DNA from: Bacillota bacterium
GTDB lineage: Bacteria; Bacillota_I; Bacilli_A; MAG-NZ
DNA length: 54,020 bases
NCBI GenBank assembly: GCA_965657695.1
Contig: CBFHOU010000001.1
Location: forward strand, 1,519 to 55,538
Direction: 5' to 3'
Position 1 is the first letter of the stretch; each line of letters begins with the position of its first letter. This document shows, one piece after another, positions 1 to 51,788 of this stretch. The notes under the pieces were generated by a model, which was given only the letters and a program-made list of their open reading frames with translations, did not search any database and was not told the DNA's origin. Both the position numbers and the translations under genes were made by a program.

Positions 1-810
1 TCCATTCAACAAGTCGTTATTAATGCGGTCTATCAAAACCAAGCGTTTACGAAAAAGGCTGTAGCGGTCTTAGAAGATTCCTATCCAAAAATCATTGCGG
101 GCTCCGCATTGCTCGGACAAGCCAGTGATGCTCCGGTCACCATTGTGACCAATCAACAAGCATTGAAATTGCTAGCAGAGCAAGATGGAATTAACGTGCA
201 ATGGGTGAAGCCTGTGGCGCATAAAGCGTGGGAATATCAGGCACTAAAAGCCATTGCGAAGCAAAAAGTTCCATTTAATCCCCTCGAAATCGGACTGTTA
301 TTTACTACCTCTAGTGTGGCAAAAGCAGTTTATGATGCGGTGGAAGAAGGAATCCCCTATACGCAAGTTGAAGTTCATTTAATGAGCGATGATGATTTTA
401 CAATGATTGATGTACCGATTGGCACTTCGATCTCGGACGTCTTAGGGCAACTAAACAAACAAACCAATTCAACGGACCAATGGTTTAGTGGAAGTGTCTT
501 ATATGGCTCTCCCTACAAGACAGATCAGTTCGTTGTATCGGATCAAGCGTTTGATATCGGGGTGACGAAAAACGTCATCACAGAAGATGTTTGTATTAAA
601 TGTGGTTTATGTAACGATGTTTGTCCGGTTGGTATCTTGCCACAAAACATCATGGATGCTGAAATTCGTGAAGTTGAGGACCGCATCTATGATTATAAGG
701 TCGACCAATGCGTTGAGTGTGGCTTATGTAGTTATATTTGTCCATCGGAAATTAATGTCTTAGAATGGCAACGCCGTGCGAAACGACGCGTTGCGAGAGG
801 AGTAGAATAA
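1..810 (+). CDS. rnfC: Rnf complex subunit C, C-terminal part (5' end outside window)
   Basis: Frame 1 is open from nt 1, so the track start at 109 is an artefact. Two CxxCxxCxxxCP ferredoxin motifs are present (CIKCGLCNDVCP, CVECGLCSYICP). It is the first gene of a coupled rnfC-D-G-E-A-B order. Confidence 0.85.
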   Translation, partial: SIQQVVINAVYQNQAFTKKAVAVLEDSYPKIIAGSALLGQASDAPVTIVTNQQALKLLAEQDGINVQWVKPVAHKAWEYQALKAIAKQKVPFNPLEIGLLFTTSSVAKAVYDAVEEGIPYTQVEVHLMSDDDFTMIDVPIGTSISDVLGQLNKQTNSTDQWFSGSVLYGSPYKTDQFVVSDQAFDIGVTKNVITEDVCIKCGLCNDVCPVGILPQNIMDAEIREVEDRIYDYKVDQCVECGLCSYICPSEINVLEWQRRAKRRVARGVE

Positions 811-1877
811 TGGCTCTTCGTAAAGCACCGTATCGTTATCAACCACAAAAAACTCGACATATCATGCGCTGGTTCCAAGTTGTATTAGTTCTTCATTTAG
901 GGGCTTCTGTTGCGGTTGCCGAACTCGGTGGTTATGATGGACTACGCGGACTGATTAGTGCAGCAATTGCGCTTGTGGTCGGACTTGCAGTGGAAGTTGG
1001 GTTTTATATTAGTTGGAACCGCTTTGAATCACTTTCGAAATTAATCAACGAAAAACATCCCTTTATAACCCCACTACTTGTCGTCTTGCTACTCCCATTA
1101 CATACACCGTTTTATATTATTGGGATTTCAACCTTAGTGGCCGTATGGATTGGCAAGCTCGTCTTTGGTGGATTTGGCTATTCAATCTTCAATAATGCGG
1201 TGGTAGGTGTCTTATTTGCGTATGTTAGTTTCGCGAATGATCTTGCGTTCCCATTAATTCAAGCGCCTGGATACAATTATCCAATTGAATTACTAAAAGT
1301 TGCAACGTTTGCTAATTCTACCGTTGGCTTTGATTTACAATCGTTATTCCTAGGTGGTAATTACTACATGGTATCGCTAGGTGCAATGTCTGGCTTGGCC
1401 GTTGTTATCTCGTTTTTGGTGTTGAGTTTCATACGGGTGATTGACTGGCGAATTAGTGTTGCCTTTGTCGCTGCTGTTTACGGGATGAGTTTCATTGCTG
1501 GGGGTCAAACCTTGGCCATGGAAATGATCCTTTCCGGTTTAGTTCTTGTTGGGGCTGTGTTCTTTGTTTCGGACCCAGTCACCTCACCAACAACCCGTAA
1601 CACGAAACTATTGTATGCCGTTGTCGTTGCCTTAATTACCGTTATGATTCGGATACTAGGGGATGCAACGGAAGGGGTTTTATTTGCCGTTCTTATAGGA
1701 AATGTAATTACTCCTTTCATGAATCGATCTGCTCGAAAAAGTTCATTTGTATCTTTTGTCCAAATGGTATTGATTGCTGCGGTTATCACCGTAACATCTG
1801 GATACGTAATTCAATTAGCGATGCAACCTGAAACGCTGGAGGTTGCTAGTTTGGAGGTTCTGGATGAAACACTTTAA
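810..1877 (+). CDS. rnfD: Rnf complex subunit D (polytopic membrane protein)
   Basis: The ATG at 810 overlaps the rnfC stop (TAATG) and follows GAGGAG. The protein is highly hydrophobic with multiple TM segments and an RnfD/NqrB-like FFVSDPVTSPTT segment. Its position in the rnf order fits. Confidence 0.9.
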   Translation: MALRKAPYRYQPQKTRHIMRWFQVVLVLHLGASVAVAELGGYDGLRGLISAAIALVVGLAVEVGFYISWNRFESLSKLINEKHPFITPLLVVLLLPLHTPFYIIGISTLVAVWIGKLVFGGFGYSIFNNAVVGVLFAYVSFANDLAFPLIQAPGYNYPIELLKVATFANSTVGFDLQSLFLGGNYYMVSLGAMSGLAVVISFLVLSFIRVIDWRISVAFVAAVYGMSFIAGGQTLAMEMILSGLVLVGAVFFVSDPVTSPTTRNTKLLYAVVVALITVMIRILGDATEGVLFAVLIGNVITPFMNRSARKSSFVSFVQMVLIAAVITVTSGYVIQLAMQPETLEVASLEVLDETL

Positions 1878-3366
1878 AATTATCTTTGTCCTGAGTCTTA
1901 CCGTCGTGTTATCGATGGTGGGTGTCTACATGGTAGAAGGCTATACAACGCCGATTATTCAGGCTCGTTTAAACGAGGCAACAAATGCAGCGTTGTTAGA
2001 GTTTTTCCCCACCGCAGATGAAGCATCAAGCTATGAAATTACGGATCAATATCCTGACGATCCCATTATTACGAATATTTATTTACTTCCTGTTGATGGT
2101 GAACCTGCAGGGGTTGTGTACCGTGGTGTATTTGCTGGATACCAACAAGGGATTGAAGTATTACTCGCCCTTAGCCTCGACTCGGAAGAAATTATTGGGA
2201 TAACGGTTCTAAGAAACTCGGAAACTGCAGGCCGTGGGAAAGACTTATTAGAAAGCCCCGCGTTCTTAGCACAATATCAATCCGCATCGTTATCTACAGT
2301 GCGTGACGATGGCGTGGATATGCCGGCTGGAACCAGTGCTCCAATTACATTAGGTGGAGTAAACCGATCGATCCGTTCGATGCTAATTTATCACGGGGTT
2401 AACTTCCTAGGATTGGAAGCCCCCGTCGAAGAAACACCCGAGGACATTAAAGAACGATTACTACTAACATGGTTCGGGGAAAGTGCGACATTTACGGACA
2501 TCCCTGTGGAAGCGAATATCCCCGTAATCGAACTGAAAGAAAGTTCGACAGGTGGGTTTTATCTCATCGCAACATTCAAAGGTAGTGGGGGTCCAAGCGG
2601 AGAAGGAATCACGCAGTATATGGTTGGATTCAATAACAATACCATCCTTGGATTAGAAGCTCTTACCATCGGTGAAACACCCGAATATGGTGGAGTCTAT
2701 ATGACCAATAGTGAATTTAAAGAACAGTTTATTAATGTTGATGTTGAACAGTTTATTACCAATGGACTAGATGCCTATACCGGTGCAACTGTAACACGAG
2801 TCGCATTCGATCAAGCACTCTATCAAATCTTAAATTATGTCCAAACTCAATTACTAGGGTTTGATACACCGACAGAACGTGCCATTGATGATGAAGTAAT
2901 GGCAGCACTTGATGATATGTTTGAAGGTGTTAGCTTTACCAACGAATCGATTAAATCAGGTAGCATATACGGTGTGTTTACTGGACGTGTAAACGATATC
3001 GTCGAGGCTGTGGTGTATTACATTGTCCATGACAATGGAGGAACCACGTCCATCTATAACAACTTGGTGAATCACTCGTTGATTCATATCAATCCAACAA
3101 CGGGAGCCATTGAAGAGCTTCGCGTGATTCGAAACAATTCATCTTATACGACTCATTATCCAGAGACGGACAAAGGGGTTGAACTTGACGGAGTTGATAT
3201 GAGTTTCCTTCGTGGGATCTCAGCACCAGGAAATGTAAGCCGTGACGACTTTGATGTAATGAGCGGTGCAAGTACCGAACCCGGTTGGGATACCATGCCG
3301 GCATTAGTCGAAGCGATTGATCAAGTATTAACGTATCAACAACAGCATCAAATAGGAGGTTCGTGA
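1864..3366 (+). CDS. rnfG: RnfG-like subunit, unusually long (500 aa), with an N-terminal TM anchor plus three FMN_bind-type modules
   Basis: The ATG at 1864 follows GGAGG. The N-terminus MKHFKIIFVLSLTVVLSMVGVY is a TM anchor. It sits between rnfD and rnfE. There are three ET-x-G motifs and three D-x-x-[STA]-G-[AT]-[ST] sites. Confidence 0.8.
   Translation: MKHFKIIFVLSLTVVLSMVGVYMVEGYTTPIIQARLNEATNAALLEFFPTADEASSYEITDQYPDDPIITNIYLLPVDGEPAGVVYRGVFAGYQQGIEVLLALSLDSEEIIGITVLRNSETAGRGKDLLESPAFLAQYQSASLSTVRDDGVDMPAGTSAPITLGGVNRSIRSMLIYHGVNFLGLEAPVEETPEDIKERLLLTWFGESATFTDIPVEANIPVIELKESSTGGFYLIATFKGSGGPSGEGITQYMVGFNNNTILGLEALTIGETPEYGGVYMTNSEFKEQFINVDVEQFITNGLDAYTGATVTRVAFDQALYQILNYVQTQLLGFDTPTERAIDDEVMAALDDMFEGVSFTNESIKSGSIYGVFTGRVNDIVEAVVYYIVHDNGGTTSIYNNLVNHSLIHINPTTGAIEELRVIRNNSSYTTHYPETDKGVELDGVDMSFLRGISAPGNVSRDDFDVMSGASTEPGWDTMPALVEAIDQVLTYQQQHQIGGS
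2095..2397 (+). repeat. RnfG FMN_bind-type module 1 (degenerate flavinylation motif)
   Basis: Sequence GVVYRGVFAGYQQGIEVLLALSLDSEEIIGITVLRNSETAGRG ... VDMPAGTSAPIT. The AGTS motif lies at 2326-2337. Confidence 0.5.
2548..2847 (+). repeat. RnfG FMN_bind-type module 2 (canonical TGAT site)
   Basis: Sequence GGFYLIATFKGSGG...ILGLEALTIGETPEYGG ... LDAYTGATVTRVAFDQAL. The TGAT motif lies at 2779-2790. Confidence 0.65.
2995..3333 (+). repeat. RnfG FMN_bind-type module 3 (canonical SGAS site)
   Basis: Sequence AVVYYIVHDNGG...IEELRVIRNNSSYTTHYPETDKG ... FDVMSGASTEPGW. The SGAS motif lies at 3262-3273. Confidence 0.55.
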
Positions 3367-4007
3367 TGGATCAAACTGTTAAATTAGGTAGCGTCTTCAA
3401 AAATGGAGTCCTGACGAACAATCCAACCTTTGTTCAGTTTTTAGGAATGTGTCCAACCTTAGCAGTTACCTCCCAAGTAAATAGTGCGCTTGGTATGGGG
3501 ATTGGGGTTGTGTTTGTCCTCGTGTTATCCAACCTTTCGATTTCATTAATTCGTAATTATGTGCCAACGGAGATTCGCATCCCGGTATATATTGTAGTGA
3601 TTGCGGCACTGGTAACCATCTTAGAGATGTTTATGAATGCATTTACACCAGCGTTGGCCGCAGAGTTAGGTACGTTCTTAAAATTGATTGTAGTTAACTG
3701 TATTATCTTGGGTCGTGCTGAAGCGTTTGCGCAAAAGAATGGTCCGATTGCCTCAGTTGTCGATGGATTTGCGATGGGACTTGGGTTTACAGGTGGACTT
3801 ACATTGTTAGCGATTTTCCGTGAAGTCTTTGGATCGGGATCATTTATGGGCAATGAAATTAGTTTGATTGCCAGCAACAATTTTCAACTAAGTCTCTTAA
3901 CTGGACCGGCAGGAGCGTTCCTTGTCTTTGGACTCCTTGTTGCTCAGTTGACAAAATACCGTCAATATAAAGCCGATAAAGAAGCTTCTCAGGAGGTGAT
4001 TGCATGA
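3366..4007 (+). CDS. rnfE: Rnf complex subunit E
   Basis: The ATG at 3366 lies 6 nt after AGGAGG and overlaps the rnfG stop (GTGATG). It is a polytopic membrane protein with N-terminus GVLTNNPTFVQFLGMCPTLAVT, typical of RnfE/NqrD. Confidence 0.9.
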   Translation: MDQTVKLGSVFKNGVLTNNPTFVQFLGMCPTLAVTSQVNSALGMGIGVVFVLVLSNLSISLIRNYVPTEIRIPVYIVVIAALVTILEMFMNAFTPALAAELGTFLKLIVVNCIILGRAEAFAQKNGPIASVVDGFAMGLGFTGGLTLLAIFREVFGSGSFMGNEISLIASNNFQLSLLTGPAGAFLVFGLLVAQLTKYRQYKADKEASQEVIA

Positions 4008-4579
4008 ACTTAATCGGCATTGCCTTCGGGGCAGTCTTTGTTTCTAATGTTGTACTAGCTCAATTTTATGGATTATGTTCATTCTTGGGCGTATCCAAGA
4101 AAAAAGGTCCGGCGTTCTCCATGGGAATGGCGGTTACTTTGGTTATTACCTTAAGTACGATGATTGCATGGGCGTTAGACTATTTCATTTTGATTCCCAA
4201 CAACCTTCGATATTTAAATACGATTACCTTTATTCTTGTCATTGCTGCGTTTGTACAATTGGTGGAGATGTCGATTAAACGTTTTAGTCCCCCACTCTAT
4301 CAGTCGTTAGGCGTCTATTTACCTCTCATTACAACCAACTGTGCCGTATTAGGGGTAGCAATCGACTCGACTCAAAAACTAAGCTATAACTTTACTGAGG
4401 CTACCACGTATGCATTATTTATTAGTTTAGGCTATGCGTTAGTGATTTATTTGTTCAGTGCCATTCGAGAAGAAATGGATGCCTATGACGTCCCTCGTAA
4501 TTATCAAGGACTGGGTGTCGCATTGATTACAGCCTTTATCCTAGCTATGGCCTTCTCAGGATTTGGAGGTGTTGTATGA
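4004..4579 (+). CDS. rnfA: Rnf complex subunit A
   Basis: ATGA overlap with rnfE and a preceding AGGAGG. The hydrophobic 191-aa protein contains LGVYLPLITTNCAVLG, typical of RnfA/NqrE. Confidence 0.9.
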   Translation: MNLIGIAFGAVFVSNVVLAQFYGLCSFLGVSKKKGPAFSMGMAVTLVITLSTMIAWALDYFILIPNNLRYLNTITFILVIAAFVQLVEMSIKRFSPPLYQSLGVYLPLITTNCAVLGVAIDSTQKLSYNFTEATTYALFISLGYALVIYLFSAIREEMDAYDVPRNYQGLGVALITAFILAMAFSGFGGVV

Positions 4580-4881
4580 CCGTTGTCTTAACCCTTGCCT
4601 TTTCATTGAGTATTTCATTGGCGGTTATTTTATCGTTTGCCTCTCAAGCACTACATGTCCCTGAGGACCCGCGTCTCAACGATATTATTAATTTGTTACC
4701 CCTTGCTAACTGTGGTCAATGTGGAAATCCTGGCTGCAAAGGGATGGCAGAAGCCATCTTGTCAGAAAATACGCGCTTAACGTCCTGCAAGCCAGGCGAC
4801 CAAGCAATGCGCGAACGTATTCGGGATTATTTAGAAACTCATCCTGATGAAGAAGGAAGCTTTGTTAAGGTTAAAATGTAA
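4576..4881 (+). CDS. rnfB: Rnf complex subunit B, short form (N-terminal TM plus a single Cys-rich Fe-S domain only)
   Basis: ATGA overlap with rnfA. It has an N-terminal TM helix followed by NCGQCGNPGCKGMAEAI...TSCKPG (Cx2Cx4Cx16C). It ends at 101 aa with no CxxCxxCxxxCP ferredoxin repeats. Confidence 0.75.
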   Translation: MTVVLTLAFSLSISLAVILSFASQALHVPEDPRLNDIINLLPLANCGQCGNPGCKGMAEAILSENTRLTSCKPGDQAMRERIRDYLETHPDEEGSFVKVKM

Positions 4882-5309
4882 TGAAAAGAATTTTTGCACT
4901 AGTTCTTGTTGTATTTCTTGTTGCCTGCGAACAAGCCCCGTACCGAATGGATAATTTGGATGATTACATCCTTGATCCTGATGTTCAAAAAGTGGATGTT
5001 CGCGGTCAAAGTGAACGCCTTGCGAATGGATATGTGGACCGTTTCCAGTCGATTGCTCTGGTGGAACTGTTAGGTCAAAGCGCAATTGATTTGTCGAATG
5101 GGTACAATTTTGAACCAGAAGATATTCTCAACGAAGTATTGATTCGGTCGCTATTTGATGAAGATGCTGAAGCGATTGTCATCATGTGTAATAGCGGAAC
5201 CAGAAGCCGATATATGGTCAGAGTCCTGGTGCACTTAGGCTATGATAATGTTTATAATCTAGGAGCATACAGTAATTATAACGGTGCGTATTTCATTAAT
5301 GGAGCATAA
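4881..5309 (+). CDS. Rhodanese-domain lipoprotein (exported sulfurtransferase-like)
   Basis: The ATG overlaps the rnfB stop (TAATG). The signal peptide carries a lipobox (MKRIFALVLVVFLVAC). A rhodanese active-site loop is present (IVIMCNSGTRSRY...GYDNVYNLGAY). Confidence 0.8.
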   Translation: MKRIFALVLVVFLVACEQAPYRMDNLDDYILDPDVQKVDVRGQSERLANGYVDRFQSIALVELLGQSAIDLSNGYNFEPEDILNEVLIRSLFDEDAEAIVIMCNSGTRSRYMVRVLVHLGYDNVYNLGAYSNYNGAYFINGA

Positions 5310-5331
5310 AAAAAGCCCGGTGGGCTTTTTT
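5309..5331. terminator. Bidirectional intrinsic terminator between the rnf-rhodanese and hyd operons
   Basis: AAAAAAGCCC-ggt-GGGCTTTTTT: a GC stem flanked by an A-run and a T-run. Both convergent stop codons touch it. Confidence 0.8.
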
Positions 5332-7105
5332 ATTTGTTAATGAATGATTTGTCTTGATAGGTTGTATGGAAATATCGCTTTGCCTTCATACTTCGAGTTT
5401 GATCAACAAGTTGTTGGTACGCATTTTCTTGATCCGTCGTCGGCAATGGATTAGGGTCATATCGTTTCGATTGAAGAATGCTTTCTTGACGAAGACTAAC
5501 TACATCAAGACCACTTCGGTATTCTTCACGTAGGATGGGTTGACCACCACCATTGAGGCATCCACCTGGACATCCCATGAGTTCAACATAGTGGTAGGTA
5601 ATGCCTTGGTCTTGTTGAACGCGTAGATAATCCATCATGTCTTGCATGTTTTTACCCCCATGGGCTTTTGCAAGACGCAATGTATGATTCCCAATTGTTA
5701 CGGTTGATTCCAGCAACTCTGGATAACCATCAATGGGCGTGTAATTGAATTCAATAGTTGATTGTCCTGCTGCACGGTTTGCAACGCGCAGAATTCGTTC
5801 CATCAATCCCCCATCAAGAGATCGAAAGCCATGCGATTGATCGAGTCGATCAACAGGTGAATTCCATTCAAAGGCTGGCATTGAATCAACATCGATTCGA
5901 GCTTTGCGAATCATTCGTGCAATTTCACGTGTTGTTAAGACGGCATCCACATTACGTAGACCATCATTCACCATGTCATCACGGTCTGATTCTGACTTAT
6001 GAGCCGTACAAGGAGAAATCGTCACAACATAGAGTTTAGTGGCATTAATCTTATAGGCATCATGAGCAAGGAATGATTTAAGTAGTGTTCCTTGTAACAT
6101 ATGAGGTGCTTTGGCTGTTGAGATATGGTCCAGCATCTCAGGATGATTTTGTTCTGCATAACGAATCCACCCAGCGCTACAAGAACTGAAAAGGGGGAAT
6201 CGTTCCGGAGCATTTTCCAGCGTATCCATTAATTCTGCTGCTCCTTCGAATACTGCGATATCTTCAGCGATGGATGTGGTAATAACATCATCAAAGCCTA
6301 AGGCTTTGATGGCAGATAAGATTTGACTTTCAACTTCATCGACATTTGTCCCGATATCATAACCAAAATCTTCCCCAATGGCTGCTCGAACCGCTGGGTC
6401 TACTTGGGCAACCACAAATCGATTTGGATCACGAAGAGCTTCTTGCACGTCTTGGATATGATCCTTTTCAACAATTGCAGCCGTTGGACAGACTTTCGCA
6501 CAAAGGCCGCAGCCAATACAGTTCACTTCATCCAAACTGCCTTTTCCAAAAATTGGAGAGATGACACTATCATAGCCACGTTCCATATATTCTAAGACGC
6601 CAACGCCAGCGATTTGATCACACACTGCAATACAAGAAGAACAGTGAACGCATTTGCTGGAGTCTAATACAATGGATGCAGATTCATTAAGTTTCAGATC
6701 TTTACCTGCTAAATCAAAGCTATGTTTGTATACATCGTCTACATTATATAAACGCATTTGATCAAATAAATCACAGTTTTTTTCCCGTGGACACGTCCAG
6801 CAATCAAACGAGTGATAACTTGCAAGAAGTTCTAATGATTGTTTGCGTGAATCGTAAACACGATCCGTCTCCGTGTTTACCACCATACCCTCAGTAGCCT
6901 CTAAGGTACACGTTGTTTGAAGTCGTGACCCGTTTACTTCAGCGACACACATACGGCATGCGGCAACGTCGTTGAGGTCTTTCAAATAACATAATGTAGG
7001 CATATAGGTTCCTTGAGCTTGAATCACTTCAAGGACATTACTTTTATCTGCCACCTCAATCGATTGACCGTTGACAGTAATGGAAATCATCTTTTGTTCA
7101 CTCAT
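5330..7105 (-). CDS. hydA: [FeFe]-hydrogenase large subunit homologue (HydA-like) with non-canonical H-cluster motifs
   Basis: The ATG at 7105 follows AAGGAGG and overlaps the hydB stop (ATGA). It has an N-terminal 2Fe-2S Cys pattern, HSFDCWTCPREKNC, two 4Fe-4S motifs (CVHCSSCIAVC, CIGCGLCAKVCP), and an H-domain with ELMGCPGGCLNGGGQP. Confidence 0.85.
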   Translation of the reverse strand: MSEQKMISITVNGQSIEVADKSNVLEVIQAQGTYMPTLCYLKDLNDVAACRMCVAEVNGSRLQTTCTLEATEGMVVNTETDRVYDSRKQSLELLASYHSFDCWTCPREKNCDLFDQMRLYNVDDVYKHSFDLAGKDLKLNESASIVLDSSKCVHCSSCIAVCDQIAGVGVLEYMERGYDSVISPIFGKGSLDEVNCIGCGLCAKVCPTAAIVEKDHIQDVQEALRDPNRFVVAQVDPAVRAAIGEDFGYDIGTNVDEVESQILSAIKALGFDDVITTSIAEDIAVFEGAAELMDTLENAPERFPLFSSCSAGWIRYAEQNHPEMLDHISTAKAPHMLQGTLLKSFLAHDAYKINATKLYVVTISPCTAHKSESDRDDMVNDGLRNVDAVLTTREIARMIRKARIDVDSMPAFEWNSPVDRLDQSHGFRSLDGGLMERILRVANRAAGQSTIEFNYTPIDGYPELLESTVTIGNHTLRLAKAHGGKNMQDMMDYLRVQQDQGITYHYVELMGCPGGCLNGGGQPILREEYRSGLDVVSLRQESILQSKRYDPNPLPTTDQENAYQQLVDQTRSMKAKRYFHTTYQDKSFINK

Positions 7106-8472
7106 GCATTTGCCTCCTTGAAGCATTTGCCACAGCGGCAGTGACGGTCACGGATATGCTCTATGAATTCGTCTTCAAAACTGTATAGAGCCGAATACAT
7201 CGTCATTCCCATCGCAACGCCTAATCCGCAAAGTGAAGCGGAACGCATGTGTTCAGCTAGGTCTTTCATCTTTTGTAAATCATCCATGGTCGCTTCACCT
7301 TGAATGATTTTCTCAAAGAATTGAGTCATTTTTCGAGTTCCTGCACGGCATGGGGTACAGCGACCACAACTTTCAATGGCAAGTAGGTCCACATTAAAGT
7401 GCATGAAGTGCATGAGACAAGTTGAATCATCAAGGAAGACCGTTCCGCCCGAACCAACCATAACTTGACGTTCTTTAAATAGATCGAACCTGATTGGCAT
7501 GTCAATGTCATCGGGTCCAAGCATCGTAATGTTTGGACTACCTGTTACAAAGGCTTTGAACTGACGGCCCTCACGAAGTCCGCCTCCCAGTTCAATTAAC
7601 TCTCGGATTGTTGTCCCAAGAGGGACCTCAACCGTTTTTGGCTCTCGTAATTGCCCGGTAAGCGTAAACACTTTTGTACCCTCACTGCCTTCAACACCAT
7701 AGGACGAAAACCATTCTCCACCGTTTAGTATTATTTGAGGAACGACCCCTAATGTCTCGACGTTATTGATGATGGTTGGTTTATTAAACAACCCTTCAAT
7801 AGCTGGGAATGGCGGTTTATTTTTGGAGTTCCCACGGAGTCCTTCGATGGAGGAAATAATGGCGGTTTCTTCTCCACAAATGTAAGCTCCTGCCCCGCGG
7901 TACATGATGACTTCAAAATCAAAGCCACTTCCCATGATGTTTTTGCCTAATAGATTTTTTTCTTTGGCTTGCTCAATGGCGTGTTCCATGACGCGTTGTG
8001 CTTCCGGATACTCATAACGAATGTATACATACCCAATAGTCGCCCCAGTTGCAAACCCAGCGATGACCATTCCTTCGATACAACTATGGGGGTCTTGACG
8101 CATAATAACACCATCAATGGTTGCTGCTGATTCTCCTTCATCGGCATTCATGATGATGTAGTGTTGTTGGTCGGATTCTTTTACAAAACTCCATTTTGTT
8201 CCGGTGGGGAATCCACCTCCGCTACGTCCTTTGAGGCCCGATTTTTTGACTTCACCAATTACGGACTCGGGCGTCATGGAAAAGAGCACTTTATGCAGTG
8301 CTTTATACCCATCACGAGCAATATATTCCTCAATAGAGTAGGGATCGATAATGTAGGCATTTTTCAGTTTGATATGGACTTCTTTGTCTTTATTGTGACG
8401 AAGGTCTACATTAAATTTCGGCCCAACTTTGGCTAAAGTTTCTTTTTGAATTCTGTTTAATTCTTGAATCAT
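7102..8472 (-). CDS. hydB: NuoF-like NAD(H)/FMN-binding flavoprotein subunit (HydB-like, minimal form)
   Basis: Motifs GRSGGGFPTGTKW, ADEGESAA, YICGEETA and ESCGRCTPCRAGT. GGAGG precedes the ATG. It overlaps the hydC stop. Confidence 0.9.
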   Translation of the reverse strand: MIQELNRIQKETLAKVGPKFNVDLRHNKDKEVHIKLKNAYIIDPYSIEEYIARDGYKALHKVLFSMTPESVIGEVKKSGLKGRSGGGFPTGTKWSFVKESDQQHYIIMNADEGESAATIDGVIMRQDPHSCIEGMVIAGFATGATIGYVYIRYEYPEAQRVMEHAIEQAKEKNLLGKNIMGSGFDFEVIMYRGAGAYICGEETAIISSIEGLRGNSKNKPPFPAIEGLFNKPTIINNVETLGVVPQIILNGGEWFSSYGVEGSEGTKVFTLTGQLREPKTVEVPLGTTIRELIELGGGLREGRQFKAFVTGSPNITMLGPDDIDMPIRFDLFKERQVMVGSGGTVFLDDSTCLMHFMHFNVDLLAIESCGRCTPCRAGTRKMTQFFEKIIQGEATMDDLQKMKDLAEHMRSASLCGLGVAMGMTMYSALYSFEDEFIEHIRDRHCRCGKCFKEANA

Positions 8473-8942
8473 TTGTCGGCCTCCAGTTTTGCTAATTCAT
8501 TACGTAATTCATCCATGCTGATGTGTTTATGAATGTGGTGATCAATTTCAACATTTGGCGAGTGCTCACAACGTCCGAAGCATCGTCCAATACGAAGACT
8601 AATATGCCCATCATCACGAGTTTCATGAGGTTCCACCCCTATCACTTCACTTGCTAGCTTCAATAATCCTTGACCATCTTGCATATAACATGAAGTTCCC
8701 AAACAGACTTCTACAACATGTTTTCCTAAAGGTTCCGTTGTAAAGTAGTCATAAAAGGTTACAATGCCACTGACACGAGCTACCGAGACGTCCATAACCT
8801 CTGCGATAATCTTCTGCGCTTCAACAGGGACACAACGAAACATATCTTGTGCGACATGAACCGCCGGCAGTAAACCATCGGGTCGGTTTTGGTAAACCGT
8901 TACTTGTTCTCTAAATTTTTGTAATTCTTCAGGTTGGTACAT
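8469..8942 (-). CDS. hydC: NuoE-like thioredoxin-fold [2Fe-2S] subunit (HydC-like)
   Basis: Motifs VCLGTSCYMQDG ... GRCFGRCEHSPN. The ATG at 8942 follows GGAGG. The upstream ATG at 8954 lies inside that RBS. Confidence 0.9.
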   Translation of the reverse strand: MYQPEELQKFREQVTVYQNRPDGLLPAVHVAQDMFRCVPVEAQKIIAEVMDVSVARVSGIVTFYDYFTTEPLGKHVVEVCLGTSCYMQDGQGLLKLASEVIGVEPHETRDDGHISLRIGRCFGRCEHSPNVEIDHHIHKHISMDELRNELAKLEADK

Positions 8943-9029
8943 AGGAACCTCCATCCTTTATAGTGTAACGAATAAACATGAGGATTAGTTTGAGCAAAAT
9001 CAATCATTTGACGAATTAAACATATCTCA

Positions 9030-9109: not shown

Positions 9110-12100
9110 ATGAAAAAGCTAATAATCATAGCTGTTACGTCGTTTTTACTTCTTAGTCTTGCTGCCTGCGACACGGAACTTGTCGACATTCCGATTAATC
9201 CAGAGCCCGCTCCAGAGGTGGTTGAAGAAGAACCGGAAGTTAATGAGAATCCACCCGTTCAGACTGAACCAGAACAAGAGACGATCACTCCGGAAGTTAC
9301 TCCTGAGGTAGTCATTGAATTTATCGATCGTTTCATCGAAGTTCCGGCTGAGGTAGAACGTCTTCGTCGCTATCAACCCGGAACATATATGGCAGCTGAG
9401 CCAAGCCCTAATTCTCAAAATGGGCATGTTTTTGTTGTAGTTATGATTGATGATTATGGCTTTATCTCGAGTGTATATATTGATCAAACCATCTCGACCC
9501 GTGTGTTGTTTGTGAATCCATCGGGTCTCGTATACACCTTTGTTCAAGGAAATAATGTAAATATTCCTGACTCGTACCGTTTAATTGATGTGTCTCAACC
9601 GGTGTCTATGTATCCAACCGTTGATGATGCCATCCGTGTAACGGATTTAGTAGTGGGTATTGACAATACCGAAATTCGCCGTCTTACACGAACTGTGGTC
9701 AATGAGACCAAGCAAATTGGCTCGGACCGAGTCGTTGTTACCTCATCATTGTCGTATGAGGAACAAATGACATTAGTTGCTGATAAGGTGGTTCAGGACA
9801 ATACAACCTATGGATTTAATTTAATTAATCAAGGCAATATTGTCACAACAACAAGTATTCCTAATATTGACCAACCCCTCGATATACCGTTATTTCTTAT
9901 CCAATCTATCCTTGATGGCCCTGCAACGCTTTCATCTACAACATCTCTTCGTTCCTTAGATACCCCTCGTTATGGTGAGTATCAACCAGGACTTTATGTT
10001 GAGTACTCTCCAGCATTCGTCGAAAACGATGGGATTAATCATGCGATTAGTCTGATTGGTGTTGACCGATTTGGGCGGATCTTCTCAAGCTATATTGATG
10101 AAACGGTAGGGTCCACCGCTCGAACTGGAGTCTTTTCTTCCAAGCAAATCCTTGGGGATGCTTTTCCGGTGAATGGGTCCGATGCGACCTGGTCGCGCCA
10201 AGCAAACTCCATAAGTCAACAGATTATCTTTAATCAAGGAGTTGAAGGATTTACCTATCAACTCATTGGTGCACAGGGAAATGTGTCGAACATCTCGTAT
10301 CCATTTACAACATCATTACCGGTACAGCTTTCGAACCTTGAAGGGAGCGTCGTACCTGTTAACCACTTCATCGAAGCTGTTAATAATGCCTTAAGTAATG
10401 CTCGATTTGGTCACTACATTGACGGCGTTTATAACGTATTAGCTACAGATGGGTCTAATCAGTTTGCAATAGTAACCATCGAGAACAATACCATCATCGA
10501 CATTTATGTTGACCGATTCATTCGTTCATCTCAAGCGAGGTTATTCCGTCAAAATCAAGAAGTATCCTTAGAGAGCTTTCCTCGTTCCATCGGGACATTA
10601 ACCGCAACGAGAACGGTTCAAATTCCGGTATACCGTATTGGGTCCAGTTATTACTTTGCATCGAACCTAACACACTTAGGAAATGTTCCCATTATTGGGG
10701 AACAACAAATTACCCAAGATCAATTGGTTACATTATCTCTTCAAGAACGTGATCAATTATCCCCCGTATCTGCGGTTCAAACTTCGAGATTTTTAAAAGA
10801 CGTTGACGCATTACAAGCGCAATGGGTCCAACAAACCGATCAAGTCATTTCTCGTCTTGTCGATGCGGGAACAACAACGAGTTTCTTCCTATCAAATGGA
10901 CGGTTTTTGAGTTTAGTATCTGAACAATCGATTCCGGTTGAAAGCATCTTTAACCTAGTAACTAAAGCACTCTATCAAGCGAGAACCGAAGGCAATGCTG
11001 TTACAAATCTTGGTAGTAGTCTTGTTGATGTCCCCATTGCCGATGGCTCTTATGTCGCATTTCAAGCGCCAACATCAACAGGAGAAACTCCGTACTCCTA
11101 TATGATGGTTCGCAGTGGTCGAGTCGTCACTTGGGTTGTTGATCGAACACTGCTTCGCGGCGAAACCATGACGTCGATCTTATTAAGTTCAAGCTCTGTT
11201 GATACCTCTAGACAACGCGAAACTACTTCGTTAATGCAGCATTTACTCGATCAACAAACTGCCGTCATTTCTAGCACCATTGTTGATCCACTTCCAAACC
11301 TTACATTCCTCTCAGTAAGAGGACAGTCTGTATTCTCATCGACAACTTATGCCGATGAGATCTATGCTCAAATTGAATCCATTGATTCGGTTGTTCAACA
11401 AGCTGCTAGATCGCGACTAAATCAAGATATGCAAACCATTCAAGCGTACTTTGAATCGAATCCTAATACGTTTCCAACGCAACCATTAGTTGCCTTTCAA
11501 ACAAAAACTAGGTGGGTACCCTCAATCTTAAGTTTACCGACATTAAGTGCCAATTACCGCTTAGAATGGTCATCACCGAGTCGTGATATCGATATTGAAT
11601 TAGAGGGGCTGGGGTATACGTTCAGTGTGGAACAAGTGGCTGAAAATATAACAGTTCCTGTAACTGTGGACGTCTTCTTAGCCAACTCAAATCAACCGTA
11701 TCTGAATTTTACGTATGACTTGAATGTGATTCGTCGCTTTACAAATGGGCAACAGATTCTAAACGATGACACCTTTGATTTCCCAAGCCTTCGATTACTT
11801 GAAAATACAGCCTTCAATTTACCAACATCAAGTGAAGTTGATGTACGCTGGATAAGTTCGAATACAAACGCAATCTCTGCAGCGGGTCAGACGGTGGCTA
11901 CCAATGTTCCATTAACAGCAACGTTAACCGCTTATGTAGATTTGGATGCGAATGCGCAACAAGGACCCAATGAGCCATTTCGTGAATACAACATTACCGT
12001 ACTCCCTCGAGCCCAAGCGGTAGAAGAAGTGATTGCGAGACTAGACACCAACCAAATTGTTGAATACATTGATCCCGTTCTTGTCTTAGGTACAGACTCG

Positions 12101-12916
12101 AGTGTTTGGGGAATCACCTATACATGGAGCAGTTCGAGTCCTCAAGTTCGAATCTCGACCGTTTCTGGCATCTCGACATTAACCATTGGTAAACTCGATT
12201 TCCAGCAAGACGTTCCGATTACTGCAAGATTTAATTTACCCAATACAACCCATGCCGTCAGTTATCGTCTGGATGCGGGGAGGGTATCGATTTATGAGGA
12301 ATTTACATCGCTAGATATGCCCGAAGTTACGACTTCAAATACAATGATTCCGGGTCAAGCACTATTCAGTCCGCTTGGAAGTCGTGGTCTGCGTTTTGGA
12401 AGTGAGTTGTCCTTTATTACTACCGATTTTGGACGCTTTGTGAACACTAGTGGTGTAATCATTTATCAACATCCAACCGAAGACGCTTGTTTTGATCTTC
12501 GATTAACGGCGAACTATTCAGGTGGCATTACTAACTACTCACAAACAATTGAAGAGCCCTTCTGTGTTATTTCAACCAGATCACTTCAGACAAGATTAAA
12601 TGCCGATCGTAATCAAGTTCGTGATATTGTGATCGATTTATCACTCAATAACCACCGCGACCGTGTCATAACCTTACCGGTTATCGGTGATGTTTATGGA
12701 TACCCACTGATTTGGTCTGTTAATGATTCAGAAATTGTCGACCCAGCGCTATTTGATACAAGCGCATTATCAAGTGGCGTTTTAACGGTAAAAACATCGA
12801 ATCAAGATTTCACTACCACCGACGATCTTGTGCTGACTTTAACGGTTGAGGTTCCGCTATTTGGAGGGGCATACCAACGGGTTACCAAAAACATAACCAT
12901 CGACATTAGAGAGTAG
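9110..12916 (+). CDS. Giant repeat-containing lipoprotein (1268 aa), function unknown
   Basis: Signal peptide with lipobox (MKKLIIIAVTSFLLLSLAAC), followed by an acidic Pro/Glu linker. Then come four FMN_bind-like modules and about five Ig-like modules with W-x-S-S signatures. Confidence 0.9.
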   Translation: MKKLIIIAVTSFLLLSLAACDTELVDIPINPEPAPEVVEEEPEVNENPPVQTEPEQETITPEVTPEVVIEFIDRFIEVPAEVERLRRYQPGTYMAAEPSPNSQNGHVFVVVMIDDYGFISSVYIDQTISTRVLFVNPSGLVYTFVQGNNVNIPDSYRLIDVSQPVSMYPTVDDAIRVTDLVVGIDNTEIRRLTRTVVNETKQIGSDRVVVTSSLSYEEQMTLVADKVVQDNTTYGFNLINQGNIVTTTSIPNIDQPLDIPLFLIQSILDGPATLSSTTSLRSLDTPRYGEYQPGLYVEYSPAFVENDGINHAISLIGVDRFGRIFSSYIDETVGSTARTGVFSSKQILGDAFPVNGSDATWSRQANSISQQIIFNQGVEGFTYQLIGAQGNVSNISYPFTTSLPVQLSNLEGSVVPVNHFIEAVNNALSNARFGHYIDGVYNVLATDGSNQFAIVTIENNTIIDIYVDRFIRSSQARLFRQNQEVSLESFPRSIGTLTATRTVQIPVYRIGSSYYFASNLTHLGNVPIIGEQQITQDQLVTLSLQERDQLSPVSAVQTSRFLKDVDALQAQWVQQTDQVISRLVDAGTTTSFFLSNGRFLSLVSEQSIPVESIFNLVTKALYQARTEGNAVTNLGSSLVDVPIADGSYVAFQAPTSTGETPYSYMMVRSGRVVTWVVDRTLLRGETMTSILLSSSSVDTSRQRETTSLMQHLLDQQTAVISSTIVDPLPNLTFLSVRGQSVFSSTTYADEIYAQIESIDSVVQQAARSRLNQDMQTIQAYFESNPNTFPTQPLVAFQTKTRWVPSILSLPTLSANYRLEWSSPSRDIDIELEGLGYTFSVEQVAENITVPVTVDVFLANSNQPYLNFTYDLNVIRRFTNGQQILNDDTFDFPSLRLLENTAFNLPTSSEVDVRWISSNTNAISAAGQTVATNVPLTATLTAYVDLDANAQQGPNEPFREYNITVLPRAQAVEEVIARLDTNQIVEYIDPVLVLGTDSSVWGITYTWSSSSPQVRISTVSGISTLTIGKLDFQQDVPITARFNLPNTTHAVSYRLDAGRVSIYEEFTSLDMPEVTTSNTMIPGQALFSPLGSRGLRFGSELSFITTDFGRFVNTSGVIIYQHPTEDACFDLRLTANYSGGITNYSQTIEEPFCVISTRSLQTRLNADRNQVRDIVIDLSLNNHRDRVITLPVIGDVYGYPLIWSVNDSEIVDPALFDTSALSSGVLTVKTSNQDFTTTDDLVLTLTVEVPLFGGAYQRVTKNITIDIRE
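9371..11479 (+). repeat. Four divergent FMN_bind-like modules inside the lipoprotein
   Basis: Module starts are YQPGTYMAAE..VVVMIDDYGFISSVYIDQT (9371), YQPGLYVEYS..GVDRFGRIFSSYIDET (about 9971), YIDGVYNVLA..IENNTIIDIYVDRF (about 10406) and IADGSYVAFQ..RSGRVVTWVVDRT (about 11036). Confidence 0.5.
11507..12913 (+). repeat. About five Ig-like surface repeats (LP..x..W-x-SS...LTA...V type) inside the lipoprotein
   Basis: Recurrent signatures: YRLEWSSPSRDI, LPTSSEVDVRWISSNTNAISAAGQ..PLTATLTAYV..YNITVLP, ITYTWSSSSPQVRIS, PLIWSVNDSEIV..LVLTLTVEV..ITIDI. Confidence 0.55.
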
Positions 12917-35444: not shown

Positions 35445-35474
35445 AAAAAAAGAAGACCGGTTCGGTCTTTTTTT
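35445..35474. terminator. Bidirectional intrinsic terminator
   Basis: AAAAAAAGAAGACCG-gtt-CGGTCTTTTTTT, between convergent degV and chrA. Confidence 0.8.
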
Positions 35475-36567
35475 ATAGTATCAATCCAATTACAGCTCCG
35501 ATAAGGATGACAATTAGCACGGGGAGTTTCTTATAATACAAGACCCACACACTGAATAAAAAAAGAAAGAAAGGGATTGCACCAGTAAGGGTAAATTGTT
35601 GGAGAGGTACTACCACAGTGTTGAGAAATAACAACAGTGAGACACTGGTCATAAGACCAATGCTTGCAGCATTAATCCCTTTTAATGCAGCAGAGAGTAG
35701 TGCATTTTTTTTCAAAACCTCTACATATCGGTATAGAACGAAAGAAATAATAAATGATGGCAAGAAAATACCTACAGTAGCTAGGATTGCTCCTTGCCAA
35801 TTCCCCACAAGATATCCAATAAATGTTGCTGTTGTGAAGATCGGTCCAGGAGTTAATTGCCCAACGGTTACGGCATCTATCAGTTGTTGTGAAGTAATCC
35901 ATCCTAGCCGTTCAATGAAATCAGTATTCATATAGGCAAGTAACACATAACCACCGCCATAAAGAATCGACCCAATTTTTAACATGGTGTAAAAGAGTAC
36001 CCATAAACTAACAGGTTCGAGCATGTTTACTTTTGATTTGGTCTGTTGAAAAAGAACCATGATAACTCCGGCAATAAGTAACAAGGTGATTTCAGAAACG
36101 TTTGTAAAGTAAGCAATGATGAAAGACCCGATTAATATGGACCACGTAATCCACGTCGAAGCGACCTTCTTTGCTAGGCGTATGAGGGCAAGCAAAATTA
36201 CTGCGATAATAACGGAACTGATTCCTATTAGCATTGACTCAAAGGCTGGAATATTGCCAAACGTAACATAAATAGCACTCAGGATTAGAACCATAACAAA
36301 GGCAGGCAAAAGGAAGGAGATTCCTGCCAAAAGAAGGCCAATCCCTTTGGCTTTGTGATATCCAATTAATAAAGCCATCTCAGTTGAGTTTGGACCAGGA
36401 ATAATATTCGTAAAACCGATCATGTCTAAATAGGTCTCACGAGAGACCCATTTTTTCTTTTCGACAAACTCTGTTTCCATTAAAGCAATATGAGCAGCCG
36501 GCCCGCCAAATGCAATGACTCCGAGTTTTACGAACGATTGAACAATCTCTAAATATATTTTTCTCAT
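35473..36567 (-). CDS. chrA: Chromate transporter family protein (fused two-domain ChrA)
   Basis: Two CHR halves, each with a FGGP/GGGY-type motif (GVIAFGGPAAHIALME; GSILYGGGYVLLAYM). Confidence 0.88.
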   Translation of the reverse strand: MRKIYLEIVQSFVKLGVIAFGGPAAHIALMETEFVEKKKWVSRETYLDMIGFTNIIPGPNSTEMALLIGYHKAKGIGLLLAGISFLLPAFVMVLILSAIYVTFGNIPAFESMLIGISSVIIAVILLALIRLAKKVASTWITWSILIGSFIIAYFTNVSEITLLLIAGVIMVLFQQTKSKVNMLEPVSLWVLFYTMLKIGSILYGGGYVLLAYMNTDFIERLGWITSQQLIDAVTVGQLTPGPIFTTATFIGYLVGNWQGAILATVGIFLPSFIISFVLYRYVEVLKKNALLSAALKGINAASIGLMTSVSLLLFLNTVVVPLQQFTLTGAIPFFLFLFSVWVLYYKKLPVLIVILIGAVIGLIL

Positions 36568-39027: not shown

Positions 39028-39393
39028 ATGAAAAAAGCCGACATTATTCTAGTTGCAGTTATATTGTTTGCTTCATTAGCAGGTTTTTTTCTCTTGCGTT
39101 CATCTGCAGAGACGTACTTTTTAGAAATCATTTTTGACGGGGAGCGAATCCACTATCAAGAAATTACCTCTTCCACTAATGAGCAACTTACAATTAAAGA
39201 AATAGGCGAAGTGATGATTATGATTGAAGACGGGGTAGTTGATGTTGTAAGTGCAACTGAAAATCCGAACCAGATTTGTGTCTATGCATCGACGATTTCA
39301 CAAGATTCTTGGAACCCAACGATTATTTGTGCGCCAAATAAACTTACCATTCGTATCATTGGTGGGGCTCCCGTTGTGGATGTAATCATTTAA
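39028..39393 (+). CDS. NusG domain II-like (DUF1312) membrane-anchored protein
   Basis: N-terminal TM anchor, then ...IMIEDGVVDVVSATENPNQICVY...IICAPNKLTIRIIGG. It sits directly upstream of ecfA1. Confidence 0.6.
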   Translation: MKKADIILVAVILFASLAGFFLLRSSAETYFLEIIFDGERIHYQEITSSTNEQLTIKEIGEVMIMIEDGVVDVVSATENPNQICVYASTISQDSWNPTIICAPNKLTIRIIGGAPVVDVII

Positions 39394-40202
39394 TGAAACC
39401 AATTATCGATTGCCAAAACATCTCTTACTACTATATTGAAGAAGAAGGAGAGGTTATTAAAAACCTCAGCCTTTCTATTGCACAGGGTGAATGGGTTTGT
39501 GTTCTTGGACCCAATGGTTCAGGAAAATCCACGCTGTCTAAATTGATTGCTGGTATTATCAGTCCACGTCAAGGTCAGATTTTGATCCATGATGAAGTGA
39601 TGTTTCAAACAAACTATCACCTTCGTCGTAATATCGGAATGGTGTTTCAAAATCCTGATAACCAATTCGTAGGCTCGACCGTTAAGGATGACATTGCATT
39701 TGGGTTGGAGAACAATCAAATTCCCCAAGCGGATATGGACCCACGAATTCAACAATATGCAGAACTTGTCGGGATGGAGTCGTTTCTAGAACAAGAACCC
39801 CAGCATTTGTCTGGTGGAGAAAAGCAGCGAGTTGCGATAGCCTCCGTGTTGGCCTTGCAAACCGAAATTCTATTACTTGATGAAGCGACTTCTATGCTGG
39901 ATCCAATGTCCCGTCAAGAAGTGTTAGAAACCATCAAATCATTAAGAAAGTTAAATAAGACTGTGATTTCTATTACTCACGATGTGAACGAAGCATTACT
40001 TGCAGACCGGATTATCATTATGGTTGAGGGTCGCATGATTGCTCAAGGAACACCACGTGAGATTTTCATGAACCCTGATTTATTAGCTAAAGCGAATTTA
40101 GAGGTGTTACCAAGCATTCGTTTAGCCTATGAACTCCAAAAGCAAAATTATTCCAATAAGGAGGTCCTTGATTTCTTATGGGAATATCCTTTCAACAAGT
40201 AG
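39393..40202 (+). CDS. ecfA1: ECF transporter ATPase component 1
   Basis: Motifs GPNGSGKST, LSGGEKQRVAIA and LLLDEATSMLD. The order ecfA-ecfA'-ecfT-truA fits. Confidence 0.92.
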   Translation: MKPIIDCQNISYYYIEEEGEVIKNLSLSIAQGEWVCVLGPNGSGKSTLSKLIAGIISPRQGQILIHDEVMFQTNYHLRRNIGMVFQNPDNQFVGSTVKDDIAFGLENNQIPQADMDPRIQQYAELVGMESFLEQEPQHLSGGEKQRVAIASVLALQTEILLLDEATSMLDPMSRQEVLETIKSLRKLNKTVISITHDVNEALLADRIIIMVEGRMIAQGTPREIFMNPDLLAKANLEVLPSIRLAYELQKQNYSNKEVLDFLWEYPFNK

Positions 40203-51421: not shown

Positions 51422-51760
51422 ATGATTGAACAACGCCCATGGGGAAGTTATGAAGTGTTACTCGATGCGTCAGATGTCAAAGTAAAACGGATTATCGTTC
51501 AGCCTCATCAACAACTTAGCTATCAATACCATCAACACCGCAGTGAGAACTGGACAATTGTTGCTGGGGTAGCAGAAGTGGTGCTTGATGATATCGTTTA
51601 TTCGTTACATCCAAGCGAGCATATTTTTATCCCACAAGGAGCAAAACACCGGATTCGTAATCCGTTTGATGAACCCGTGGTCTTTATTGAGGTTCAGACG
51701 GGAACGTATTTTGGAGAAGATGATATTATTCGATTAACTGACGATTATGGACGAGTATAA
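51422..51760 (+). CDS. Cupin-domain protein (type II phosphomannose isomerase C-terminal-like)
   Basis: Motifs RPWGSYEVL, KRIIVQPHQQLSYQYHQHRSENW and IPQGAKHRIRNP. Confidence 0.8.
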   Translation: MIEQRPWGSYEVLLDASDVKVKRIIVQPHQQLSYQYHQHRSENWTIVAGVAEVVLDDIVYSLHPSEHIFIPQGAKHRIRNPFDEPVVFIEVQTGTYFGEDDIIRLTDDYGRV

Positions 51761-51773
51761 CTCGTCCTTTTTT
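51749..51773 (+). terminator. Intrinsic terminator overlapping the cupin stop codon
   Basis: GGACGAGT-ata-ACTCGTCC followed by TTTTTT. Confidence 0.8.
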
Positions 51774-51788
51774 GTTACAATACTTCGT

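Follow-up and report, generated by a model that had tools for sequence, protein, structure and literature searches.

Why would an Rnf complex carry a flavin-binding subunit more than twice the usual length, and where would its additional flavins pass electrons? The question is raised by a 54,020-nucleotide stretch of a Bacillota genome (assembly GCA_965657695.1, contig CBFHOU010000001.1, positions 1,519 to 55,538 of the forward strand; hereafter the window), in which an rnfCDGEAB operon encodes an RnfG of 500 amino acids (aa) with three consecutive modules of the FMN_bind type (FMN, flavin mononucleotide). Taken with the loss of redox sites from RnfB, RnfC and RnfD of the same operon, this architecture suggests that the extra modules act as a flavin relay for a one-way complex departing from the canonical Rnf, a reading that we consider reasonably probable.

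Multi-flavinylated RnfG is a kind of protein already described bioinformatically in 2021, and the idea is not new. A survey reported 2,081 extracytosolic proteins with several FMN-binding domains and proposed that multi-flavinylated RnfGs lead electrons to acceptors outside the cytosol (Meheust et al., 2021, eLife, PMC8238504), and the structural variety of multi-flavinylated proteins has also been described (Huang et al., 2024, PMC11334425). Such proteins have been proposed as the flavin counterpart of multihaem cytochrome wires. What is new here is a terminal "cap" module that is invisible to Pfam, a remodelled Rnf core, and a conserved exported rhodanese. The locus is also a clean case, in that the extra predicted flavins belong to one defined subunit of a complex whose structure is known; to our knowledge, no multi-flavinylated RnfG has been studied experimentally so far.

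The three modules of RnfG

The gene and its parts are as follows.

1864..3366, forward strand: rnfG, with three FMN_bind-type modules (Pfam, NCBIfam, orthologs, and an AlphaFold model matching solved RnfG and NqrC chains)
1864..1944, forward strand: N-terminal membrane anchor, residues 1–27, the sole hydrophobic segment and part of helix 2–47 in the AlphaFold model
2005..2418, forward strand: module 1, residues 48–185, in the canonical RnfG position (Pfam FMN_bind 22.2 bits alone; NCBIfam rnfG models align residues 9–153)
2419..2868, forward strand: module 2, residues 186–335 (Pfam FMN_bind 35.9 bits)
2869..3363, forward strand: module 3, the cap, residues 336–500, a diverged FMN_bind fold (profile–profile comparison, Foldseek)

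The open reading frame (ORF) runs from an ATG at 1864, with a GGAGG 6 nt 5′ of it, to a TGA at 3364–3366, and lies between rnfD and rnfE in an operon whose gene order is kept in eight related loci. Boundaries and flanking genes agree with the original prediction, as does the estimate that the protein is some 2.5 times the normal length, solved RnfG chains having 187–237 aa. The FMN_bind family (PF04205) matches the whole protein with 57 bits (cut-off 22) over two stretches, while the NCBIfam rnfG models stay under their cut-offs (TIGR01947, 60.1 vs. 102; NF045876, 59.5 vs. 205; NF041840, 56.6 vs. 230). Judged by these matches, the protein is a diverged member of the RnfG/NqrC subunit family. 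Its hydropathy profile has one hydrophobic stretch only, at residues 1–27, with Lys2 and Lys5 at the N-terminus, and M1, K2 and H3 are invariant in the orthologs. This single N-terminal anchor, which the original prediction had also recognized, would place all three modules on the outer face of the membrane.

A fusion of separate genes by misassembly or frameshift finds no support as a source of this length, and its probability is negligible. Sixteen full-length orthologs (493–500 aa, 51–91% identity) from independent JGI, ENA, NCBI and Logan assemblies are each a single ORF with the same boundaries, at the same operon position and with the three-module architecture kept, and the 14-nt overlap between the end of rnfD and the start of rnfG is identical in relatives. 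A scan of the genome contigs returned one locus only. Length is likewise elevated in the wider family that shares the cap: an exhaustive profile search with module 3 against 1.84 billion representative proteins gave seven clusters below E 1e-10, in all of which the cap is C-terminal, in proteins of 408–794 aa. In these relatives, two to four canonical modules, at times with an immunoglobulin-like (Ig-like) domain, precede the cap.

Two of the three tandem modules are visible to Pfam. FMN_bind matches module 2 at residues 248–323 (35.9 bits) and module 1 at about residues 92–172, where the module scanned alone (22.2 bits) only just reaches the cut-off of 22. For module 3, scanned alone, there was no Pfam match at E ≤ 10, and its profile gave chance-level matches only among PDB sequences. 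A Pfam count therefore yields more than one FMN_bind domain, as had been expected, but two rather than three. The third comes from comparison of profiles and folds. When 10 cap modules were pooled and set against 33 canonical modules of the same family, the two profiles scored 96.0% in local alignment (E 4.1e-9) and 97.0% in global alignment (E 2.2e-10), with about 128 collinear columns and the flavinylation motifs in register, against 0.2% for a reversed-sequence control. From a 13-sequence alignment, which is shallow (effective number of sequences about 1.6–2), hhalign joined module 1 to module 2 (E 1.3e-5) and, at low probability, module 1 to module 3 (E 3.7e-3), and gave no match between modules 2 and 3. 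Modelled alone with AlphaFold (predicted local distance difference test, pLDDT, 75.7; predicted template modelling score, pTM, 0.77), module 3 has as its top five PDB matches in Foldseek the RnfG chains 7zc6_G, 8rb9_G, 8ahx_G, 8rb8_G and 9eri_G (probability 1.00, template modelling scores 0.46–0.57, E 2.5e-4 to 3.4e-3), with NqrC chains next. By profile–profile and fold comparison, then, module 3 is a diverged homolog of FMN_bind. In the full-length model (pLDDT 70.9), one succession of elements (linker helix, four strands, low-confidence motif loop, long C-terminal helix) appears three times, and the best fold matches are among RnfG and NqrC chains, with 8rb8_G, 8rb9_G, 8ahx_G, 7zc6_G and 9eri_G all at probability 1.00.

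Within RnfG, the modules share no more than 22% identity, and the junction between modules 1 and 2 (EAPVEETPEDI) is common to distant relatives, with the family form EAP[VI]EETP[ED][MD]I. Their low mutual identity, the conservation of each module across orthologs and the conserved junctions suggest that the modules are old and specialized.

One candidate flavinylation motif is found in each module: DMPAGTS in module 1 (D152–S158, 2317..2337), DAYTGAT in module 2 (D303–T309, 2770..2790), and DVMSGAS in module 3 (D464–S470, 3253..3273). Their four-residue cores (AGTS, 2326–2337; TGAT, 2779–2790; SGAS, 3262–3273) lie exactly where they had been placed. Among the six-frame ORFs of the window, 27,245 aa in total, the relaxed pattern D..[STAGN]G[ASTV][ST] matches three times, each time within RnfG, far more than chance would give. 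The motif of the flavin transferase ApbE is D-x-x-[S/T]-G-A-[S/T], and its last residue receives the FMN; with Ser there the yield is lower, and a G-to-A or A-to-V substitution halves flavinylation and does not abolish it. Module 1 keeps the D, the G and the acceptor Ser, and differs from this motif at positions 4 and 6. Its site had been called degenerate, and it does depart from the consensus, yet DMPAGTSAP is invariant in 13 of 13 aligned orthologs; in distant relatives, the membrane-proximal site reads SGAT, SGST or AGVT. In the same 13-sequence alignment, the module 2 site, D[AS]Y[TS]GATVT, is nearly invariant and the module 3 site reads D..[SA]G[AT]S. Every relative, with three to six modules, has one motif per module. 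S158, T309 and S470 are predicted flavinylation sites on this pattern, and all three may be flavinylated, which would bear out the original suggestion of up to three flavins in series. One reading of the original prediction did not survive alignment: the ET-x-G motif seen in module 3 (PETDKG) is not conserved in orthologs, in which the conserved counterpart is NSSYTT.

These motifs also bear on the possibility that modules 2 and 3 are decayed FMN_bind folds acting as a structural stalk or surface binding domain, with FMN on module 1 only, if anywhere. Such a role would fit the invisibility of module 3 to Pfam and the loss of its ET-x-G loop, the Ig-like domains inserted in the chain of relatives (which suggest surface display), and the absence of any apbE found in the window. 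However, a purely structural domain has no reason to keep exactly the residues that ApbE recognizes. The module 2 motif is textbook and almost invariant, and cap modules down to 31% identity all keep D-x-x-[SA]-G-[AT]-[ST], with the D, the G and the acceptor S/T retained. We consider decay improbable, and favor three modules that would each carry a flavin.

Compared with canonical RnfG and NqrC (7zc6, 8ahx/8rb8/8rb9, 9eri; 7xk3, 8a1y, 4xa7), the protein shares the membrane helix, the outward FMN_bind fold, the ApbE-type motif before the last helix and the gene position between rnfD and rnfE, and differs in having three modules rather than one and AGTS in module 1 rather than [ST]GA[ST]. The only biochemically characterized multi-FMN_bind proteins, SaFMN3 and CbFMN4 (Tong et al., 2023, PMC10339131), are similar in having three or four FMN_bind domains, and ApbE flavinylates the motif Thr of every domain. 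Those domains are more than 80% identical, are joined by flexible Gly/Ser-type linkers and show a single midpoint potential, and the proteins are soluble; in contrast, the modules described here are strongly diverged from one another, have conserved junctions, and are membrane-anchored in an Rnf-type complex.

Losses in the Rnf core

In Rnf and NQR complexes, cryo-electron microscopy work supports an outward path from RnfB through the RnfA/E Fe–S site to the FMN of RnfG; the return path runs from the FMN and riboflavin of RnfD to the Fe–S clusters and FMN of RnfC and on to NAD+ (nicotinamide adenine dinucleotide; Meheust et al., 2021, PMC8238504). The subunits that would flank RnfG in such a complex are encoded as follows.

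1..810, forward strand: 3′ part of rnfC, running off the window start, with two Fer4 [4Fe-4S] domains
810..1877, forward strand: rnfD, without a flavinylation site (PF03116, 180.8 bits; Tyr-Pro-Ile at 1278..1286)
3366..4007, forward strand: rnfE (PF02508, 215 bits; TIGR01948 above cut-off)
4004..4579, forward strand: rnfA (PF02508, 181.7 bits)
4576..4881, forward strand: rnfB stub of 101 aa, a transmembrane helix and the PF04060 Cys4 Fe–S domain only

These were compared with a control operon (L007; related loci are likewise given by L numbers), a fully canonical rnfCDGEAB whose RnfG (P0021, 390 aa) also has three modules. In HMMER alignments, a Tyr of RnfD falls under the flavinylated Thr of 7zc6_D and 9eri_D, with "...LDGVTTATPLAILK" in 7zc6_D against "...IQAPGYNYPIELLK" in the window. 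YP[IL] is invariant at this position in six loci, and the loose pattern [STAGN]G[ASTV][ST] is absent from the whole of RnfD in six loci, whereas the control has VTGAT. KVAT, an alternative flavinylation site suggested by the MAFFT register, was rejected: L001 and L002 have Leu in place of its Thr, and there is no Gly.

The RnfC fragment in the window gave no Complex1_51K or SLBB signal. Full-length orthologs of 395–403 aa (L002, 7739–8938; L005, 7700–8908) consist of RnfC_N and two Fer4 domains and align end to end with solved RnfC (E 6e-35), and their FMN/NADH motifs are lost: GLDQNGLYT stands for GLGGATFP (G(M/L)GGA(T)FP) and ENTGF for ECEPY. Both motifs and both Pfam domains are present in the control. 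RnfB contains only 4 Cys, whereas the control RnfB, at 284 aa, contains 24, and no ferredoxin-type domains were detected in the stub. All 87 database homologs of this stub are short (62–116 aa), and the named ones (Candidatus Izemoplasma, Izimaplasma and Candidatus Xianfuyuplasma coldseepsis) belong to one clade, which makes the RnfB stub a clade marker. RnfE and RnfA, in contrast to these subunits, match the control in keeping both conserved Cys (GMCPTL and VNCIILG in RnfE; GLCSFLG and TNCAVLG in RnfA), which we take, from published Rnf structures, to be the ligands of the intramembrane Fe–S cluster.

With the RnfD covalent-FMN, RnfC FMN/NADH and RnfB ferredoxin-type sites lost, the textbook ferredoxin-to-NAD+ path cannot close. 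Ligands are all present only on the path from the RnfB Cys4 cluster through RnfA/RnfE to module 1, which is therefore the proposed remaining route. Because the usual cytoplasmic end-points are gone, electrons likely take the outward branch as their principal path and not as a side path.

The operon might instead encode an ordinary ion-pumping ferredoxin:NAD+ Rnf with its semicircular path in working order, to which the extra flavin modules were added as an accessory that, for example, buffers electrons, opens a side branch or lends stability. The six subunit genes in canonical order would fit this, as would the control operon, which pairs a three-module RnfG with a canonical core. Meheust et al. 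picture extra flavins as a second pathway added to Rnf, and Zheng et al. annotate the Izemoplasma-type complex as a normal Na+-translocating Rnf. However, this account is difficult to reconcile with an RnfC that throughout the clade lacks the GGxxFP and ECEPY motifs and any Complex1_51K or SLBB match, with an RnfD that has Tyr at the FMN site and no motif anywhere, with an RnfB lacking any ferredoxin-type domain, and with NCBIfam rnfC, rnfD and rnfG scores well under their curated cut-offs. We hold an ordinary Rnf to be unlikely. Izemoplasma-type genome papers count the operon as a standard Na+-translocating ferredoxin:NAD+ Rnf in their energy-metabolism reconstructions; on the sequences, that assignment is probably wrong, and in place of the textbook reaction the complex probably carries electrons outward through the membrane.

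An outward relay of this sort has partial counterparts among known systems. The window's RnfG, with more than one FMN_bind domain and a predicted export anchor, resembles the multi-flavinylated proteins of Meheust et al. (2021) and Huang et al. (2024), which are extracytosolic, have more than one FMN_bind domain, occur in rnf clusters and are proposed carriers to outside acceptors. There, however, the extra flavins are added to a working Rnf, whereas the core described here has lost the RnfD, RnfC and RnfB sites, and the last module is a distinct cap type that Pfam misses. The part of the Meheust et al. (2021) supplementary text that was covered holds no rows for Izemoplasma or Haloplasma and is uninformative on this point. 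NQR/RNF-like two-subunit systems (Meheust et al., 2021; Huang et al., 2024) are also derived Rnf/NQR relatives, and are interpreted as one-way conduits from a cytosolic donor to an extracytosolic FMN_bind domain; they join an RnfD-like membrane domain fused to an NqrF-type NAD-binding domain with an RnfG-like protein, whereas the window keeps six Rnf genes, has no recognizable NAD-binding domain, and retains an intact RnfB–RnfA/E route. Methanosarcina Rnf, too, has an added outward branch for extracellular electron transfer, through the multihaem cytochrome MmcA (Holmes et al., 2019, PMC6703419); in that system the haems are on a separate protein, unlike the covalent flavins predicted on RnfG itself.

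Izemoplasma-type relatives and hydrogenase-like genes

The window has a guanine–cytosine content of 41.6%, and the nearest named genome record is "Bacilli bacterium M30B81". From similarity to "Bacilli bacterium" and Izemoplasma-type records, its lineage appears to be Izemoplasmatales-like Bacilli, and the organism an uncultured relative. X. coldseepsis zrk13 is in culture and has a complete genome; electron microscopy shows no cell wall, and thiosulfate improves its growth, a response left unexplained by its authors. The order at its locus (CP048914.1, about 318.8–339.2 kb) is NuoF-C-terminus-like, HydA-like, RnfC, RnfD, a 629-aa RnfG, RnfE, RnfA and a 110-aa RnfB, and rhodanese lipoproteins flank the locus. 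An Izemoplasma metagenome-assembled genome (MAG) encodes an RnfG of 650 aa. In both organisms, RnfG consists of four modules, each with a single motif, and the last module is canonical and not a cap. A cultured organism with a complete genome and a four-module RnfG makes the question of function directly testable.

Judged from these sequences, derivation of the Rnf core is graded across the clade. The RnfC FMN/NADH motifs are lost, and RnfB is a stub, both in Izemoplasma proper and in the window's sub-clade. At the RnfD site, Izemoplasma proper has Thr (NTPL/GTPL) and the sub-clade Tyr; of the four H-cluster Cys in the operon's HydA-like protein, Izemoplasma proper keeps all four and the sub-clade none.

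This HydA-like protein is known from relatives, as the window begins inside rnfC and the genes in question would lie 5′ of the window start. The relatives' operon, including that of L012, whose RnfG is 88% identical, starts with a 116-aa NuoF-C-terminus-like Fe–S protein and a HydA-like protein of 558–576 aa (L001, 143–1870; L002, 6003–7733; L008, 6015–7742; L012, 6078–7754). The H-cluster sites in the sub-clade read TSSNAGW, TPSTAAKYE and EFSDTFGGLITGGGQP. With all four H-cluster Cys lost, the operon's HydA-like protein cannot be a hydrogenase in the window's sub-clade.

The window itself encodes a separate HydABC-type trio at 5330..8954 on the minus strand, in which HydA (598 aa) is accompanied by NuoF-like (456 aa) and NuoE-like (161 aa) proteins. 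This HydA has unusual H-cluster motifs (SSCSAGW for TSCCPxW and PCTAHKSE for MPCxxKxxE), and the third motif, ELMGCPGGCLNGGGQP, is normal. Beyond it, at 9110..12916, is a gene for a 1,268-aa lipoprotein (...LSLAAC) with a faint Ig-like match, 3 Cys and no haem motifs, which is kept beside hydABC in L002, L005 and L008.

Exported neighbors and the proposed electron route

One further gene adjoins the operon and is translationally coupled to rnfB, its start overlapping the rnfB stop by 1 nt.

4881..5309, forward strand: exported rhodanese lipoprotein of 142 aa (PF00581; lipobox LVAC; active-site loop CNSGTRS, an intact CX4R)

A rhodanese gene is found at the same place in L002, L004, L005 (as a tandem double domain), L008 and L012. 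Its lipoprotein signal implies export, which would bring it to the membrane face where the flavin modules lie, and this conserved exported protein is a concrete candidate acceptor. The neighbor proteins examined have no CxxCH motifs. The literature covered gave no link between rhodanese and flavinylated systems, nor any description of rhodanese or hydrogenase-like partners. SelR/MsrB, encoded upstream, was considered as an exported acceptor and set aside, there being no signal peptide in L002 or L005.

In the Izemoplasma MAG (L011, 10642–12045), a 467-aa lipoprotein encoded beside rnfB combines an N-terminal rhodanese (CGSGTRA) with two flavinylation-type motifs of the form D..AGVT, DSVAGVT and DAVAGVT. 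Its ortholog in X. coldseepsis (L010, 10504–11829) has the rhodanese and one motif, with no FMN_bind match. Small Cys-rich lipoproteins with D[ES]FAGSS are encoded near the operon in L010 (547–1200) and L011 (679–1326). The pairing of rhodanese and flavin motifs in Izemoplasma-type lipoproteins is suggestive, and hints at a coupling of flavin to rhodanese. Genes for ApbE adjoin the operon in L005, L010 and L011, and the ApbE encoded near the operon of Izemoplasma and X. coldseepsis carries a fused surface Ig-like domain.

No second FMN_bind protein was found in the window, and an Rfam scan of the window, covering for example the FMN riboswitch, returned nothing at gathering threshold. Outside the window, a membrane-anchored FMN_bind protein of about 420 aa is encoded just upstream of the operon in L002 (4276–5529), L008 (4307–5563) and L012 (4343–5614); it consists of FMN_bind, an Ig-like domain and then a second motif, and is an RnfG paralog (E 5.5e-38).

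On the relay reading, module 1 would take the place of ordinary RnfG's single domain above RnfA/RnfE, and modules 2 and 3 would extend the flavin chain away from the membrane. Electrons would pass from the RnfB Cys4 cluster through the RnfA/RnfE Cys to module 1, and then presumably from module 1 to 2 to 3. Candidate cytoplasmic donors are the hydrogenase-derived Fe–S proteins and the neighboring HydABC-type enzyme. Through the extra flavins, electrons would leave for an extracytoplasmic acceptor or, in the reverse case, come in from a donor. The likeliest immediate partner may be the co-transcribed rhodanese lipoprotein, on which sulfane sulfur held by the active-site Cys would be reduced, although a direct partnership is a tentative suggestion that we would not yet lean on.

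The converse direction deserves separate mention. The same flavin chain could be fed by a donor outside the cytoplasm, such as reduced sulfur that the rhodanese handles, and deliver the electrons inward to the Fe–S and hydrogenase-derived module. Rnf and NQR chemistry is reversible in principle, the Izemoplasma HydA-like protein keeps its four H-cluster Cys and could be an inward sink making H2, and a bifurcating-type HydABC is encoded next door. However, the corresponding protein of the window's sub-clade, having lost all four Cys, cannot make H2, and a fermenter more plausibly needs electron sinks than sources. Inward flow seems doubtful, and outward flow is the direction we prefer.

A more far-reaching interpretation is that the whole locus is no Rnf in function but a novel respiratory-type module of Izemoplasmatales-like bacteria, which would respire sulfur by means of flavins and need neither haem nor quinone. 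HydA-like and NuoF-C-terminus-like Fe–S input would feed a stripped-down Rnf membrane core, and an RnfG wire of three to six flavins would lead to surface rhodanese lipoproteins, where the sulfane sulfur of thiosulfate or polysulfide would be reduced to sulfide. If true, this would explain the stimulation of X. coldseepsis growth by thiosulfate; we regard it as speculative and, at present, rather unlikely.

Several observations weigh against an outward relay with the rhodanese as its partner. The module 1 motif is off consensus at two positions (A for S/T and T for A), and module 3 is without the conserved ET-x-G loop. The continued presence and conservation of RnfC and RnfD would be puzzling were that half of the complex useless; RnfD might still hold a non-covalent flavin, and that of Izemoplasma proper keeps a Thr at the site. 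No apbE was found in the 54-kb window, nor within 10 kb in the closest relatives, L002, L008 and L012. The FMN_bind match of the 467-aa Izemoplasma lipoprotein is sub-threshold in Pfam (18.4 bits vs. a cut-off of 22; family profile domain E 4.7e-5). In the thiosulfate transcriptome of X. coldseepsis, known sulfur genes are not visibly induced, according to its authors, and the rhodanese proposal gains no support from it.

Further genes were noted in and around the window. A bacteriorhodopsin-family gene, unexpected in a fermentative Izemoplasma-like lineage, lies a few kb 5′ of the rnf operon in L002 (2834–3640), L008 (2898–3686) and L012 (2915–3709). Genes of the chromate-transporter (ChrA) family occur twice in the window, at 35473..36567 on the minus strand and at 51747..52872, one being full-length and one a split pair. 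At 39393..41973, two ATP-binding cassette (ABC) ATPases and a CbiQ/EcfT-type protein form the energizing module of an energy-coupling factor (ECF) transporter.

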